64,000 nt of DNA from positions 32,001-96,000 of the IMG/VR virus record IMGVR_UViG_3300033485_000001; one strand, written 5' to 3'. Shown here piece after piece: positions 3,898 to 34,302 of the stretch. This DNA is from a virus. The notes below the pieces were generated by a model. The model searched no databases. It was given only the letters and a program-made list of their open reading frames with translations, and had not been told where the DNA came from. Position numbers and translations under genes: made by a program. How positions within the stretch are numbered: the first letter of the stretch is position 1; every line of letters begins with the position of its first letter.

Positions 3898-3908
3898 GGT
3901 ATAAGATC
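3898..3908 (+). promoter_or_regulatory. GGTATAAGATC promoter-like motif
   Basis: Exact copy, followed by a two-hairpin leader and an SD. Confidence 0.75.
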
Positions 3909-3950
3909 GCTGAGACCACAGGGTCTCTTTTACCGCAGTCGGGAGGCTGC
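3909..3950 (+). promoter_or_regulatory. Structured 5' leader (two hairpins)
   Basis: GAGACC-ACAG-GGTCTC followed by TTTT, then GCAGTC-GGGA-GGCTGC (GNRA loop) just before SD GAGGTGG. Confidence 0.55.
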
Positions 3951-3954
3951 TGAG

Positions 3955-4479
3955 GTGGCTGTGATGACAGAGGAGAGAAGAGGAGGTCCCCAACAGAGGG
4001 GCATCAAGGAGTGGGCGCGCGTCGGCGAAGAGCCGATCGCGCATACCCAATGGGAGATGTTGATCGACGGCAAGCAGGTGGTGATGGCTGCCACGCTCGA
4101 GATCAAGAACCCCGTCTTCTACGACGGGAACAGGGGCCGACCCGTCATCGAGCTCACGCTCCAGAAGGACAGGTGGTCCTTCCGCTTCAGGATCCCGCGC
4201 CAGGGCCTGAGCGAAGCGGACGGTGCCATCGACGTCCTCCAAAAAGTGCTGGCAGCGAAGGAGAAGGCATACGAAGCCTACGACACCGCCTTCAAGACCT
4301 ACGAGGAGGAACGGGAGAAGGATCGCACTGCGCGCATCGCCGAGCACGAGAAGCGGACCGAGCAGTTCAAGGGCGGCCGGGGCAACGACAAGGCCGGCGC
4401 CGGCCTCGGCAAGTACTCCAAGCCCGGCAAGACGAAGAGGCACCGAGAGCGCGGCAAGGACGAGCGCGCCTCTCGGTGA
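3955..4479 (+). CDS. Hypothetical protein with basic C-terminal tail
   Basis: 174 aa, typical codon usage; start GTG 3955 or ATG 3964. Confidence 0.75.
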   Translation: MAVMTEERRGGPQQRGIKEWARVGEEPIAHTQWEMLIDGKQVVMAATLEIKNPVFYDGNRGRPVIELTLQKDRWSFRFRIPRQGLSEADGAIDVLQKVLAAKEKAYEAYDTAFKTYEEEREKDRTARIAEHEKRTEQFKGGRGNDKAGAGLGKYSKPGKTKRHRERGKDERASR

Positions 4480-13234: not shown

Positions 13235-13332
13235 AAGAAAGGAGGCTCGGACTCCAATCTCCGCCCTGTTGGGCAAGGAGGTGCATTTTGAGGGTCCGGC
13301 CTCCGAGACCAGGAAACATTCTTGGCCTCAGT
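13235..13332 (-). ncRNA. Candidate structured leader or small RNA with two anti-SD copies
   Basis: Directly behind the TATAAG promoter; 5' hairpin, 11-bp long-range stem GGAGGCCGGAC/GUCCGAGCCUCC, inner hairpin, ends UUUCUUAG. Confidence 0.55.
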
Positions 13333-13343
13333 GATCTTATACC
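13333..13343 (-). promoter_or_regulatory. GGTATAAGATC promoter-like motif
   Basis: Reverse-strand exact copy; shares GGTATAAGATCACTGAGG with the 21798 copy. Confidence 0.75.
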
Positions 13344-20041: not shown

Positions 20042-20126
20042 GACGGCCACCAAGCGACTCGTGGAGGGAAGGCTGATCCTGTACTGTGCGCGGTGTCGAG
20101 GCACGTTCAAGACCACCCCGATCTAG
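19977..20126 (+). CDS. 49-aa zinc-ribbon protein (not in ORF track)
   Basis: GGAGGAAG SD; MGKLHKENKDTSKIRCPHCKSETATKRLVEGRLILYCARCRGTFKTTPI*. Confidence 0.7.
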   Translation: MGKLHKENKDTSKIRCPHCKSETATKRLVEGRLILYCARCRGTFKTTPI

Positions 20127-21457
20127 GGCAGCCGCTCGTCGAAGGCTTCGTGAGCGGACTTGTCAGGATGCCACTCGAGGAAGATAGGAGCCGTGAGCGC
20201 GTTCGTGTCGTCACCCTCGGCGATGAAGGTGCGCGACTCGTACTTGATCCGGGCCACGCCGACGATACCCCGGTGATTCGCGGCACGGCGGAGGACGTAG
20301 GCTCGCTGCTCCTCGGTGAACCCAGAGCCGCAGTTGCAGATGTAGTGCAGCGCCCCGCTTCCGCCGTACTGGTAGAGCGCGACCACACCAGGCAGCTCCT
20401 TCAGGCGGCCCTTGCCGTAGCGACCTGCGTTGCGACCATCGTGGCTCCATGCGCCGTCGGGATCGAACACGACCAGGAAGTCTCCTTCCTGGATCGGTTT
20501 CCACTTCCACGCCTCGGGGCGTTCCTCGCGGCCACGGAAGTTCACCACAGCCTCCCCGAAGACAGCCTCGCCATCGTAGACCACGAGGCCCTCGAGATTC
20601 TCCTCGTTGACCATCTCCATCAGCCCGTCCAGCGTTCCGGTCATCGTGGCCATCACGTCGAGGTACTGGAACCGGCGCGTGCCGATGCGCCGATACATGA
20701 AGTCGATCCACTCCTTGACCGGCATCTCGGACATGATCGAGAGGCCGTTCCAGTAGGGGATCCCGAGCACGATAGCCTTCGGCCTGCGGAACGGATCCTC
20801 CTGGAGAAGTCGAGCCCTCTCGGGCAGGCTGCGGTCCAGGGTCTGCACCAGCCTTCGGTTGTCCTTCCCGCCCTCTTCGACCACGAGCTCGGTGAGGAGG
20901 ACCGTCTGCGGTGGAAGACCAGCCTTCGTGATCTCCCGGACGAGGTACGGGTACTTGTCCGTGCAGGGATCCATCCTTCGCGTGAAGACCCTGACCATCC
21001 CCTCCTCGTCGACGAAGATGGGGTGCATCATCCCGTCCCGCTTGATCGTGTAGATCGCGCGTCCGGAGTCGATGACCTCCTGAAGCGCGGCCATCTCCTT
21101 GGTGTCCGGTTCGGGCTGATGACGGCACTTCATGAACCTCACGTTCTTCGCCGGGTTCGCGAAGTCCAGGTCGTCAGCTCGTCGCGACTCGATGATCTCC
21201 CCAGTCTTCGGGTCGATTTCCTGATATCCGAGCCTGTCGATCTTGTCTCGAATGTGACGCTCGGAGACAAGGATTGCTTGGGTCTTGGCGTCCTTGAAAC
21301 CCTTTGTCCCGAACTTCCCAACCGATCCTGGGCGGTCATGGGTCTGCTTCATGCGACCACCGGCGACCCCACTTTCCATGTAGACGATCTCGCCGTCCAC
21401 CCAGATACGCCACTCGAGCGGGTTCACCTTCCCGCTCTGCCTGAACACTCTTGGCAT
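20123..21457 (-). CDS. lig: ATP-dependent DNA ligase with N-terminal WGR-like domain
   Basis: KRDG (motif I), LLTELV, EGLVV (IV), WKWKP (V), OB-fold GSGFT; N-terminal EWRIWVDG..VYMESGVAGG; AGGAGGTG SD. Confidence 0.88.
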   Translation of the reverse strand: MPRVFRQSGKVNPLEWRIWVDGEIVYMESGVAGGRMKQTHDRPGSVGKFGTKGFKDAKTQAILVSERHIRDKIDRLGYQEIDPKTGEIIESRRADDLDFANPAKNVRFMKCRHQPEPDTKEMAALQEVIDSGRAIYTIKRDGMMHPIFVDEEGMVRVFTRRMDPCTDKYPYLVREITKAGLPPQTVLLTELVVEEGGKDNRRLVQTLDRSLPERARLLQEDPFRRPKAIVLGIPYWNGLSIMSEMPVKEWIDFMYRRIGTRRFQYLDVMATMTGTLDGLMEMVNEENLEGLVVYDGEAVFGEAVVNFRGREERPEAWKWKPIQEGDFLVVFDPDGAWSHDGRNAGRYGKGRLKELPGVVALYQYGGSGALHYICNCGSGFTEEQRAYVLRRAANHRGIVGVARIKYESRTFIAEGDDTNALTAPIFLEWHPDKSAHEAFDERLP

Positions 21458-21487
21458 CGTCACCTCCTAACATCCATCGGGCCTGGA

Positions 21488-21497
21488 CCCTTATACC
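21488..21497 (-). promoter_or_regulatory. GGTATAAGGG promoter-like motif
   Basis: Reverse strand, about 30 nt upstream of the ligase start. Confidence 0.7.
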
Positions 21498-21512
21498 AGA
21501 GAGGAGATCGGA

Positions 21513-21731
21513 ATGAGCACCCCTGAGATCAAGATGACAGTCGAGAACATCGAGGGCGTCACCAGGCGCCAGGTCGTCGATGTCATCGTCGAGCAAGAGC
21601 TGAACCAGTTCGACAAATTCCTGACCGCGACCTTCGGCGGCACGCAGCCCATGGCCAGCTTCGAGCGGGCGATGGTGAAGAGCTACATCATGTGCAAGCT
21701 CGCCGAGCAGATCGCCAAGATGCCGGGCTAA
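21513..21731 (+). CDS. Small hypothetical protein
   Basis: GAGGAG SD; 72 aa, typical codon usage. Confidence 0.7.
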   Translation: MSTPEIKMTVENIEGVTRRQVVDVIVEQELNQFDKFLTATFGGTQPMASFERAMVKSYIMCKLAEQIAKMPG

Positions 21732-21797
21732 AAAAGTCCGGGGTGCAGCCCGCGTTAGCGTTGCGTCTCGACGTTTCAGCTGCCCGAGGTCCTCAGT
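21730..21797 (-). ncRNA. Candidate small RNA (about 68 nt)
   Basis: Promoter directly upstream, no gene-like ORF, end-pairing stem enclosing two hairpins, U6 tail. Confidence 0.6.
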
Positions 21798-21808
21798 GAT
21801 CTTATACC
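21798..21808 (-). promoter_or_regulatory. GGTATAAGATC promoter-like motif
   Basis: Exact copy on the - strand. Confidence 0.75.
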
Positions 21809-21811
21809 CAT

Positions 21812-21837
21812 CTAAGAAGTGGTCCTCTCGGGACCAC
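21812..21837 (-). terminator. Terminator-like hairpin after gene 21845-22186
   Basis: GTGGTCC-CGAGA-GGACCAC followed by TTCTTAG on the - strand. Confidence 0.6.
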
Positions 21838-21844
21838 CCCTCCC

Positions 21845-22186
21845 TCACTTCTTACCCTCCAGCTCCTTGATCCGCTTGATCAGAGCTCGGACGTCCTTCC
21901 GGTACTCGTCCATGACGTACCGGAGGTCTTCCTCCCCCTTGCGGATCCGGGCCAGGGCCTTCGTCTCGAGCCCCCTCAGCGCCTTGCGATGCTTGGCGTC
22001 GAGCTTCTCGAGCTTGGCCTTGGCCAGCTCCTTCTCCTGGATGCGAGCCAGGCTCACGGCCCGGCTCTCGGCCTGATCCCAGGTGTCCATCAGGACGTTC
22101 CCCCCGATGGATACCCAGCCCAGCCAGGAGCAGTCGGCGAAGAGCTGGAGGGAACTGCTCGTGAAATGGAGCGCGCTTTTCAGCAT
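21845..22186 (-). CDS. Coiled-coil hypothetical protein
   Basis: AAAGGAGGGAG SD; own TATAAGATC promoter. Confidence 0.7.
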   Translation of the reverse strand: MLKSALHFTSSSLQLFADCSWLGWVSIGGNVLMDTWDQAESRAVSLARIQEKELAKAKLEKLDAKHRKALRGLETKALARIRKGEEDLRYVMDEYRKDVRALIKRIKELEGKK

Positions 22187-22204: not shown

Positions 22205-22213
22205 GATCTTATA
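22205..22213 (-). promoter_or_regulatory. TATAAGATC promoter-like motif (variant)
   Basis: Core conserved; GG replaced by TA. Confidence 0.6.
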
Positions 22214-31181: not shown

Positions 31182-33539
31182 ATGAAGAAAGAAGCCGTAG
31201 GCGTGAGGACCGGGGGGTTCATGCAGACGAGGAGGGGGACACGTCCGCTCCACGTCGAGACCCTGCTCCGACGGCAGAGCCCAGGTTCGGCTGCGAACGT
31301 CTTCGAGCCCGTCAAGCCCACGGTGACGGACAAGACCTTCGAGCAGTCGCTGGCGGCCACCGCCGGGGACGAGTTCCAGCCCGAGCAGGAGAAGGATGCA
31401 GAGCTACGCCGCGACACCGTCAACGAGAAGCCGACAGCGGTGTCGCCGGCGCTCGTCGAGTCGGCGAAGAAGAGGCTGGTCGGAGAGCAGAACGGGAAGA
31501 AGGTCTTCCTCGTTGATGGTGGGGTCATCCGCGACAAGATCGACACGGACTTCGCCTTGGGTGGCAACTCGGCTCGGTACAGCTACGTCCCCGAGGGTGA
31601 GGTGTGGGTCGAAGACACCGGGAACAAGAAGGACATCGCGAACACGGTCGTCCACGAGGATCGCGAAGAGGGTCTGATGCGCCGTGGTCAGACCTACGAC
31701 AAGGCGCACGAGAAGGCCACCGAGGAGGAAGAGGAGCGGCGCAAGGAAGCCTCGGTCAAGGACATCGTCGCCAAGATAGCCCCCCACACGAACGACGTGG
31801 TCCTCGTGGCCTCGCGGCTGGCTCACGGCAAGCGAAGGCGGAAGGAGTCTGGGGAGGTCAAGAAGTCGTCCTTGATCACAGATCTCGAGAAGGAAAGCTC
31901 GGCGGCTGAATTCGCTCCTGGCATTCCGATCGGCAGGGTGGTAAAGAAGATCCCCTCTGTGAAAGAGAAGGATCCCAATGCCGAATGGACAGCAAGCCTC
32001 TCGCTCCATCCCGCCGCCCGACGCGGAGATCACTTCGATCTGCGGTTGGTGGACCCGAAGGGACAGGCCCACTCCTGGGCCATCAACAAGATGCCCGAGC
32101 CAGGGAGCAGCACTTATGCTGCTCAACAGCCGACCCACTCAGGCTCCTACGCCCGACGAACAGAGCCGTTCACGATCCCCCTCAACGTGTACGGCGGGAC
32201 CCGTCCTGGCGCCAAGGTAGAGCCGAAGTATGTGCAGCCCGTCGAGGTCATCGCAGCGAACGACAAGCACGTCCACTTCCTGCGCCATCAAGGGCAGGAG
32301 ACCGAGGAGCTGGTCCTCCGCCGAATCGCTCGAGCCGGAGACCGGACGCCCATCTGGGCGTTGCACAACTCGACCAGAACTCGATCTACCCAAGAGGGAC
32401 AGCGCCTCCCCGACTCCAAACCCAAGTACCAGGAGATCCCGATCGGGTCCGTGGACCTGACCAACGACCAGCAGCTCATGACCGCCAAGCTCGACGGGGC
32501 GCACACCCTCGTCGACTTCCCGAAGGCGGACCGGATGGTGCGGACGTACTCCTACCGCCCCACCCAACGGCAGAGCGGTGTGATCGAGCACACGTTCAAG
32601 TTCCCCAACTTCCAGAACCTGAAGACCCCGCAGTCGCTGAAGGGCACGCTCATCCGAGCTGAGACTTGGGCCTCGGATCCGTCCGGGAAGGCCATCCCAG
32701 CATCCGAGCTCGGCGGCATCCTCAACTCGAGCGTGGTCAAGGCGCGTCAGGCGCAGGAGCAGGGGATCACGCTGCGCAGGACCGGCATCGACGTGGTCAG
32801 GTACAAGGGCAAGGACATCTCGAACGCGCCCTACGCCGAGAAGCTGGAGGTCCTCAAGGAGGTCCACAAGGCAACCGGAGGAGCCATCGAGCTCCCGCTG
32901 GCCGCCAGGACCGCCGAAGAGAAGGCCGTGCTCATGAACGCCGTGAAGGCCGGGAAGCTGCCGGAGACGAGAGAGGGCGTGGTCCTACACGACCTGACCA
33001 GCAGCCAGCTGATGAAGGCCAAGGTTCGTCCCGACACGGACGTCTACGTCCGAGAGATCGTCACGAAGCCGTTGACGGAGGCCAAGGGTCAGGCGGCGGG
33101 CTTCAGGTACTCCCTCGAGCCCACCGGCCCCATCATCGGGCACGTTGGCACTGGGTTCTCGAATCAGCTCCGGAAGGAGATGCTACAGAACCCAGATCAG
33201 TTCGTAGGACGTGTCGCGAAGGTTCAGTCGGCAGGCCAGCACGTCAGCCGTAGCGGACAGTCTGGGGCGCTGATCGGCTCTCCTGCTTTCAAGGAGTGGC
33301 ACATCGACAAGACGCCGCCTGAGCTGATGAAGAGGGCATCCCTGGACCCCGCATTCGTGGGGGCGTACCGCATAGCTGAGGAGGAAGCGGATCCAGAGAA
33401 GATCGTGGGTAGGCTCGCGGAGACACGACAGGGCCGCGCCCTCAAGCCCGTGCTCGAGAGCGCGCCGGTCCGACCGTTCGTGTCGAAGTTGAGATCGGCG
33501 TACCGTCGTCTCATGAGGAACAAGAACAGTGCCGCTTGA
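31182..33539 (+). CDS. Multidomain protein: zincin-like HExxE domain + LigD-type 3'-phosphoesterase + ATP-dependent DNA ligase
   Basis: VFLVDG..IRD...HEDREE...YDKAHE; LH....DHFDLRL...SWA...THSGSY (PE catalytic H,H,D,R,H,Y); KLDG, REGVVL, KAKVRP, VGTGFS; alternative ATG 31173. Confidence 0.85.
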   Translation: MKKEAVGVRTGGFMQTRRGTRPLHVETLLRRQSPGSAANVFEPVKPTVTDKTFEQSLAATAGDEFQPEQEKDAELRRDTVNEKPTAVSPALVESAKKRLVGEQNGKKVFLVDGGVIRDKIDTDFALGGNSARYSYVPEGEVWVEDTGNKKDIANTVVHEDREEGLMRRGQTYDKAHEKATEEEEERRKEASVKDIVAKIAPHTNDVVLVASRLAHGKRRRKESGEVKKSSLITDLEKESSAAEFAPGIPIGRVVKKIPSVKEKDPNAEWTASLSLHPAARRGDHFDLRLVDPKGQAHSWAINKMPEPGSSTYAAQQPTHSGSYARRTEPFTIPLNVYGGTRPGAKVEPKYVQPVEVIAANDKHVHFLRHQGQETEELVLRRIARAGDRTPIWALHNSTRTRSTQEGQRLPDSKPKYQEIPIGSVDLTNDQQLMTAKLDGAHTLVDFPKADRMVRTYSYRPTQRQSGVIEHTFKFPNFQNLKTPQSLKGTLIRAETWASDPSGKAIPASELGGILNSSVVKARQAQEQGITLRRTGIDVVRYKGKDISNAPYAEKLEVLKEVHKATGGAIELPLAARTAEEKAVLMNAVKAGKLPETREGVVLHDLTSSQLMKAKVRPDTDVYVREIVTKPLTEAKGQAAGFRYSLEPTGPIIGHVGTGFSNQLRKEMLQNPDQFVGRVAKVQSAGQHVSRSGQSGALIGSPAFKEWHIDKTPPELMKRASLDPAFVGAYRIAEEEADPEKIVGRLAETRQGRALKPVLESAPVRPFVSKLRSAYRRLMRNKNSAA

Positions 33540-34302
33540 TCACGAGACAGATCCGGTCCTCGACTTCATCGAGTTCGCCGATGAGCTCGACAAGGAGGCT
33601 GCCGCTGGCAGAGCCGAGAAGGACTTCCAGCTCTGGAACCAGTGGCAGCAGAACGGGAAGAAGTCGGAGGACCTCGAGCCCCTCATGAAGCAGATGGAGC
33701 CGCTGATCCGACGCGCGTCGAACGTCTACTCGGGCAAGGTCAACATCCCGAGGACGGCGGTTCATGCCGAGTTCCAGATCCAGGCGATGAACGCCTTCGA
33801 CACGTTCAACCCCAATCGGGGAGCCTCGCTCGGGACACACGTCACGTGGCAGCTCAAGAAGGGTAAGCGGTTCGTCTCCACGTACCAGAACATCGGACGG
33901 ATCCCTGAGACCAGGATCCACAACATCACGACGTTCCAGAACGCGAGAGATGAGCTTCGTGATCAGTTGATGCGAGATCCTTCGGCGCACGAGTTGGCAG
34001 ATCATCTGAAGTGGCCAGTGAATCAGGTCTCGGCGATGGAGCTCGAGCTGCGGCGTGAGGTTCCGACCTCGACGCTCCAGTCGGACATGAGTTCCATCAA
34101 GCCCTCGAGAGAGGCCGAGATCCTTCGGCTGATCCAGTACGACCTCTCCCCCGACGAGAAGGTCGTGTACGAGCACCTGCTGGGCGTGAACGGGAAGCCA
34201 CAGCTCAAGCCAGGTGAGATCGCGATGAGGCTCAACATGTCGCCGTCGAAGGTGTCCAGGATCAAGGACTCCATCGGCGCCAAGGTGAAGAAGTACTACT
34301 GA
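33529..34302 (+). CDS. RNA polymerase sigma factor (sigma70 family, FliA/SigD-like size)
   Basis: Region 2 AFDTFNPNRGASLGTHVTW; region 3 ELADHLKWPVNQV; region 4 HTH KPGEIAMRLNMSPSKVSRIK. Confidence 0.88.
   Translation: MPLDHETDPVLDFIEFADELDKEAAAGRAEKDFQLWNQWQQNGKKSEDLEPLMKQMEPLIRRASNVYSGKVNIPRTAVHAEFQIQAMNAFDTFNPNRGASLGTHVTWQLKKGKRFVSTYQNIGRIPETRIHNITTFQNARDELRDQLMRDPSAHELADHLKWPVNQVSAMELELRREVPTSTLQSDMSSIKPSREAEILRLIQYDLSPDEKVVYEHLLGVNGKPQLKPGEIAMRLNMSPSKVSRIKDSIGAKVKKYY

Follow-up and report, generated by a model that had tools for sequence, protein, structure and literature searches.

Phage-encoded small RNAs are, to our knowledge, known mostly from a few enterobacterial model phages. The put RNAs of phage HK022 are promoter-proximal structured RNAs of about 70 nt, which lie before terminator-like sites and are built of two tandem stem-loops. 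The OOP RNA of phage lambda is a cis-antisense RNA to cII, and the sar RNA of phage P22 covers the ribosome site of ant (PMC12197685). A further related design is riboswitch-gated antisense transcription, reported for the S-box located downstream of the ubiG operon of Clostridium acetobutylicum (PMC2566862).

The locus described in this work resembles each of these systems in part. Like OOP, the candidate RNA is a short phage RNA with its own promoter, convergent to a small gene of regulatory size and overlapping the 3' end of this gene, but it has no similarity to OOP in sequence or structure. OOP overlaps a coding sequence, whereas the candidate RNA covers only the stop codon and the presumed 3' UTR of its neighbor; it also differs by its three-way junction with invariant junction bases and by its doubtful terminator. 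With P22 sar and similar RNAs it has in common a small size, a promoter, the lack of an ORF and a position opposite a presumed target. In contrast to sar, it is located at the 3' end of the neighbor and its sequence is conserved far beyond the needs of pairing. The put RNAs share with it the length, the promoter-proximal position, the structured character and the terminator-like site that follows, but they are tandem stem-loops and not a stem-closed junction; the likeness is a descriptive one. The S-box arrangement is similar in that the promoter points at the 3' end of the gene under control and is followed by a structured sensor, with read-through giving an antisense RNA. The candidate RNA differs from it in that no aptamer class of Rfam matches, no alternative terminator/antiterminator pairing is seen, and the junction is much smaller.

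The window analyzed (64,000 nt) comprises bases 32001–96000 of a 178.5-kb IMG/VR phage record with 62% G+C. The features of the locus, in window coordinates and in the order of minus-strand transcription, are as follows.

22208–22213, minus strand: TATAAG site, promoter of the 113-aa gene
21845–22186, minus strand: 113-aa gene from the ORF list, the upstream transcription unit, with homologues at the same place in relatives
21814–21842, minus strand: terminator-like hairpin closing the 113-aa unit (12-bp stem, -18.9 kcal/mol)
21801–21808, minus strand: GGTATAAG, promoter-like motif of the RNA unit, based on enrichment and conservation
21730–21797, minus strand: candidate small RNA of 68 nt, its presumed ends placed by the promoter (5') and by the U run (3')
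21742–21785, minus strand: three-way-junction core, based on pairing and covariation
21730–21735, minus strand: U6 run, from the sequence
21513–21731, plus strand: convergent 72-aa gene, predicted to encode a conserved two-helix protein
21490–21497, minus strand: GGTATAAG, promoter motif ahead of the ligase gene, which is the next unit on this strand
20123–21463, minus strand: ATP-dependent DNA ligase gene (Pfam DNA_ligase_A_M, 3.2e-07; PHROG 114, 1.5e-11)

The initial annotation of this DNA had quoted a minus-strand sequence at 21730–21797 between a hairpin with TATAAG and a U6 run, and the sequence is found exactly there. The hairpin at 21814–21842 has a z-score of -3.2 against shuffled sequences. 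At its end the U6 run overlaps the 72-aa gene, its final two U being complementary to the TAA stop codon there. Pfam and PHROG searches gave no match for either the 113-aa gene or the 72-aa protein. Homologues of the latter are 27–72% identical and occupy the same position in all relatives. Its AlphaFold model consists of two helices (pLDDT 77) with a near-neutral charge, and this two-helix hairpin retrieved no informative fold match from the PDB. Ahead of its adenylation domain the ligase is extended N-terminally by about 125 aa, and two of its homologues carry the source name 'WGR domain protein'.

The 68-nt stretch is free of ATG, GTG and TTG. Relatives have indels of 1 nt at the 5' flank, within each of the two loops and in the tail, and these shift the frame across the conserved core, so conservation of the core is not due to coding. 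A coding reading was rejected on these two grounds. On the same strand a 170-aa open frame (21336–21848) spans the hairpin, the promoter and the RNA and continues antisense to the 72-aa gene. This frame is an artefact of high G+C content, because the frame-shifting indels of the relatives alter its product altogether.

The promoter motif is a genuine one and recurs. GGTATAAG occurs in 7 copies in the window against 0.20 expected, and none of 100 shuffles reaches 7. Its wider form [GT][GA]TATAAG has 20 sites in the whole 178.5-kb genome (G000); those in the window are at 1068, 3898, 6305 and 7651 on the plus strand and at 13343, 21497, 21808 and 22215 on the minus strand. ATC and then TGAG often come after these sites, and almost all of them stand ahead of non-structural genes. 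No common -35 element is seen among the 20 sites, and a literature search on TATAAG phage promoters returned nothing relevant. Apart from the site of the RNA unit, 15 of the other 19 are located 21–67 nt upstream of an SD sequence with an ORF, and for the remaining four the distance to the first qualifying ORF is 121–388 nt. For the RNA unit the next qualifying ORF is the ligase gene, 343 nt further on and with a promoter of its own. The proposal of an ORF-less unit behind a promoter is thus borne out both by the lack of a start codon and by the recurrence and enrichment of the motif. The same phage carries a sigma-like gene at 33529–34302 (Sigma70_r3 at 1.9e-09), encoded on the same strand as the long tape-measure-like ORF.

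Sister phages were reached via the ligase and the 72-aa protein. They give eight distinct versions of the gap sequence: that of the window and those of L009, L008, L001, L014, L006, L015 and L019. The gene order is shared and consists of a tape-measure-like gene, the 113-aa gene, a gap of 110–142 nt, the convergent 72-aa gene and the ligase gene, with L009 and L008 as the two exceptions. L009 is a mosaic (130–688): its homologue of the 72-aa protein has 88 aa and another N-terminus, and the place of the ligase is taken by a 95-aa gene. Its RNA and its 113-aa gene differ very little from those of the window. In L008 the gap is filled by an HNH gene. Two further relatives likewise retain the intergenic gap. 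A G+C-rich upstream hairpin of different sequence occupies the corresponding position in all relatives but L008, whose sequence does not extend that far. The distance from TATAAG to the closing stem P1 is 15–16 nt in all eight versions, and TATAAG is found upstream of the ligase gene in L001 as well.

In the same comparison with the window, the core (about 44–45 nt) is 74–98% identical, the ligase gene 68–88% and the 72-aa gene 63–77%; the 40 nt upstream of the promoter are 32–61% identical. As judged from these identities, the core is shown to be under stronger purifying selection than the neighboring genes.

In a ninth relative, L020, the ligase shares only 47% identity with that of the window, and a CATAAG site stands at the same place. 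Its promoter reads GGTCATAAG, and a syntenic non-coding unit of about 125 nt follows (L020:2095–2232, plus strand). This unit retains the 5' UGAGG, the UGAAG strand, a closing stem in which two pairs are compensatory, and a tail of similar kind; its interior is larger and branched. The covariance model R1 built for the element does not detect it, and for this reason L020 is treated as supporting context outside the eight-sequence set.

A blastn search of the phage GenBank collection gave no match to the element. In IMG/VR, queries with the element pattern, with the ligase and the 72-aa protein, and with an alignment of each protein yielded only two sister contigs, and pattern scans of metagenome and genome collections returned only more copies of the L001 type. 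One further contig breaks off shortly before the element. One sister phage genome of complete length, L026 (contig CAZNAX010000001.1, 173,992 bases), is found inside a MAG named 'uncultured Desulfatibacillum sp.'. This placement may be a binning artefact or a weak hint of the host.

The RNA is numbered from A1, which is window position 21797. The closing stem P1 pairs bases 13–19 with 49–56, base 54 being bulged; P2 pairs bases 24–27 with 32–35, and P3 pairs bases 38–40 with 45–47. The GCAGC/GCUGC closing stem and the two 3-bp hairpins suggested by the initial annotation are present, and compensatory changes occur in each helix across the eight relatives. In both a MAFFT alignment and a model-based alignment of the eight sequences, 95.5% of the cells are standard pairs; sliding the partners by 1–3 columns reduces pairing to 26–53%. 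Within this eight-sequence set, where most of the signal is supplied by L015 and L019 of a single clade, four pairs change on both sides, at least one in each helix, which is reached by 9–14 of 500 shuffles. The covariation score is 0.227 (vs 0.13), and 0–1 of 500 shuffles reach it. The changes at individual pairs are listed below.

Pair 27–32 (P2): U-A in the window, C-G in L006 (visible only after moving one misaligned column), G-U in L015, G-C in L019
Pair 24–35 (P2): A.C in the window, A-U in L014 and L006, G-C in L015 and L019
Pair 17–51 (P1): A-U in the window, G-C in L015 and L019
Pair 39–46 (P3): G-C in the window, A-U in L019
Pair 15–53 (P1): G-C in the window, G-U in five versions

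The loops are 3 to 5 nt long and differ in sequence in almost every version. None of the eight versions departs from UGAA, AA and G at the unpaired junction positions or from CCUC before P1. The check suggested earlier, namely covariance and conservation in related phages, therefore came out in favor of the fold, with eight conserved versions and compensatory changes in all three helices.

The fold energy of the 68-mer has a z-score of -0.25 on the minus strand and -0.07 on the plus strand, and the cores of the window and five relatives range from -0.02 to -0.7, so that no thermodynamic significance of the fold is seen relative to shuffled sequence. Since the fold is no stabler than shuffled sequence, its energy proves nothing on its own. 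The statement that the element is more than chance rests on promoter enrichment, conservation and covariation and not on energy. The minimum-energy fold is exactly this junction in four of seven versions (L001, L014, L015 and L019); in that of the window P1 is kept and the interior is paired differently. An outer pairing of the 5' GAGG with the U tail was proposed by RNAalifold. It was not counted, as it has no double changes and the tails are poorly aligned.

At the 3' end, close relatives have U6, U7 or U4CUU in the tail, and in the others it is a mixture of U/C or U/A; across the relatives the tail is pyrimidine-rich, with 4 to 7 U. By eye, the branched stem of the window ends 2 nt ahead of the U6 run; a simple terminator scan did not call this tail. 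In L008 an HNH endonuclease gene of 157 aa (L008:2715–3188, minus strand; HNH_3 at 1.1e-15, with a C-terminal helix-turn-helix) sits between the U run of the RNA and the 72-aa gene, rewriting the last ~12 residues of the 72-aa protein. It has AGGAGG and an ATG, starts 12 nt after the U7 run and lacks a nearby promoter, so that polymerase must, at least on occasion, continue past the tail. The closest relatives of L008 have the same RNA sequence without the HNH gene, so the insertion is recent and does not explain the element. As a separate observation, a second, different HNH/NUMOD4 gene adjoins the tape-measure-like gene in the contig of P0009. Of the U-tail terminator postulated in the initial annotation, the U6 run is real, but it is not conserved as a run of U, is not called by the scan and is passed through in L008. 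The terminator is unconvincing: negative in the scan, degenerate in relatives and read through in L008.

The initial annotation did not recognize any known family, and in agreement with this Rfam finds nothing on the element even at E <= 10. Rfam 15 gave no match in the whole window at gathering thresholds. With the threshold relaxed to E <= 10 on 21650–21880, the only hit was a 9-bit chance match on the upstream hairpin and promoter, off the element. ARAGORN found no tRNA or tmRNA genes in the window. A hammerhead was also considered, as three helices and a UGAA(A/G) strand are present. It was rejected because the CUGAUGA strand is represented by a single invariant G, and the hammerhead models of Rfam do not match the element.

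Covariance model R1 scores the eight versions at 70–94 bits and finds one copy in each of the three phage records searched (G000, G001 and G002). A second copy or paralogue in the genome was sought with the same model, and the only extra match (14.5 bits, E 0.12) falls in coding sequence. Among 101 genomes related to the Desulfatibacillum-labelled MAG, R1 gave two weak matches, one inside a coding gene and the other without P2 and P3, which are read as chance. Taken together, a promoter without a gene, selection on the core and the compensatory changes make a real structured RNA gene the best reading of the element, and we consider this reading likely. The candidate RNA most likely represents a new family within a known category.

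What this RNA does can be proposed more tentatively. The reading we favor, with somewhat less than even confidence in the statement as a whole, is a non-coding RNA gene of uncultured ~175-kb phages which is OOP-like with respect to the 72-aa gene and whose junction is probably read by a protein. According to this proposal, the TATAAG promoter, which immediately follows the terminator hairpin of the 113-aa unit, would fire on the minus strand and give a short, presumably discrete RNA of about 65–75 nt. Its middle 44 nt would fold into the three-way junction, with P1 as the closing stem and P2 and P3 as tiny hairpins, and its pyrimidine- and U-rich tail would lie over the stop codon with which the convergent 72-aa gene ends. 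Both this RNA and products of read-through would be perfect complements of the 72-aa mRNA in its 3' end and 3' UTR. Duplex formation together with convergent transcription could then lower expression of the 72-aa gene while the TATAAG promoters are active, as OOP does with cII. The junction is probably also a recognition site for a protein that stabilizes the RNA or sets transcription past the leaky tail.

Several features of the locus are consistent with the OOP-like reading. The anatomy given in the initial annotation was right, and of the roles that it put forward (protein decoy, anti-defense RNA, antisense regulator of the 72-aa gene) the last agrees with the geometry. At the level of motifs, the element has a promoter of its own which faces the 72-aa gene in all relatives and precedes P1 by the constant distance given above, i.e. 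the convergent arrangement of an OOP-type RNA. The RNA adjoins the 72-aa gene in all eight versions and in L020, including the mosaic L009. The tail overlaps the stop codon, and how much of the 3' UTR is covered as well would be set by the end point of the 72-aa mRNA; an mRNA running to the next hairpin would be fully complementary to the RNA. Antisense pairing in cis does not account for everything that is conserved here. Perfect cis-antisense pairing constrains no sequence, and therefore the invariant junction and the CCUC before P1 point to another partner. As the invariant junction bases are not required by pairing either, the junction is probably the site of protein recognition. A protein partner is likely, in addition to the antisense role or instead of it.

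If the protein partner is the whole of the function, the element would be a trans-acting structured RNA that binds a phage or host protein, as a decoy or as a regulator of the transcription apparatus, and its position opposite the 72-aa gene would be incidental. This possibility is supported by the invariant UGAA, AA, G and CCUC next to freely varying loops, by a core more conserved than its coding neighbors and by the sigma-like gene carried by the phage. The phage genome, moreover, has no complementarity to the RNA of at least 12 nt that could serve as a base-pairing target, only 11-mers at about chance level. On the other hand, the 72-aa protein encoded next to it has a near-neutral charge and matches no RNA-binding fold, and the chance matches in the 101 bacterial genomes include no look-alike of the RNA. 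We regard the trans-acting reading as rather doubtful. Another reading ascribes the function to transcription in cis: the junction and tail would form a leader or attenuator, a conditional stop gating read-through either antisense via the 72-aa gene towards the ligase or, in L008, into the HNH gene, and the short RNA would be a mere by-product. The HNH gene 12 nt after the U run with no promoter in between, the variable U tract and the aptamer-like conservation of the junction fit such a device, and riboswitch-gated antisense transcription is a known design (PMC2566862). It is nevertheless unlikely. No alternative antiterminator pairing is seen, seven of the eight versions have no same-strand gene before the next promoter, the HNH insertion is recent and absent from the closest relatives with the same RNA sequence, and 3-bp hairpins are small for a ligand sensor.

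Both these readings, as well as the OOP-like one, assume that the functional RNA is the minus strand. The complement folds almost as well: of the 112 cells, 107 pair on the minus strand and 104 on the plus strand, where the four A.C cells of pair 24–35 at the end of P2 become G.U. Wobble pairs barely separate the strands. The element begins right after the stop codon of the 72-aa gene, and a plus-strand RNA could act there as a 3' UTR stabilizer or terminator of the 72-aa mRNA. In this case, however, seven G-U cells inside helices would become C.A, including the mid-P1 pair G15–U53 in five of the eight sequences, no U run would follow, and a conserved, precisely spaced minus-strand promoter would be left without purpose. 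The spacing of 15–16 nt between promoter and P1, the pyrimidine-rich tail of the minus strand and the location of the irregular pairs (G-U inside helices, A.C at a helix end) all favor the minus strand, which makes the plus-strand reading highly unlikely. It is also conceivable that selection acts on the DNA itself, as a site for protein binding, a replication origin or an endonuclease target, or that the element is the decaying leader of a lost gene. HNH genes do insert in the neighborhood, and ORF-less promoters mark origins in some phages, as with oriF and oriG of T4. We give this very little credence, since compensatory changes that preserve pairing are unexpected for duplex DNA, the cumulative GC skew makes no turn at the element, and a relic would hardly remain under purifying selection across relatives down to 60% ligase identity.

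Returning to the minus-strand RNA, its junction might be a sequence-specific protein-binding module of a new RNA class. As a regulator or decoy it could act on the sigma/RNA polymerase of the phage itself or on a host RNA-binding or defense protein; alternatively, it could be a protein-gated stop. We put this forward with considerable reserve. In its protein-gated form, the module may decide whether early-type transcription runs antisense into a gene of the late strand. If the protein-binding or protein-gated form is true, it would represent an RNA layer in the timing program of large phages that bring their own transcription machinery.

The candidate is of interest as a compact RNA (about 70 nt) supported by covariation. 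The uncultured phages that carry it, from wetlands and freshwater, are ~175 kb in size and have their own promoter class and a sigma-like gene. The invariant unpaired junction bases of the RNA suggest a specific partner, and it would matter more if this partner belongs to the transcription or defense machinery. The candidate RNA is tractable for structure probing, pull-downs and mining of metatranscriptomes, and it may be used as a marker for this phage lineage.

Two other TATAAG leaders of the window, at 3906–3960 (plus strand) and 13235–13335 (minus strand), have the same ...CTGAG start and a hairpin right at the presumed 5' end. In the 3906 leader this is followed by UUUU and then by a GCAG/CUGC hairpin containing the ribosome site. 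The 13335 leader has an exact 18-mer in common with the promoter and the start of the candidate RNA.
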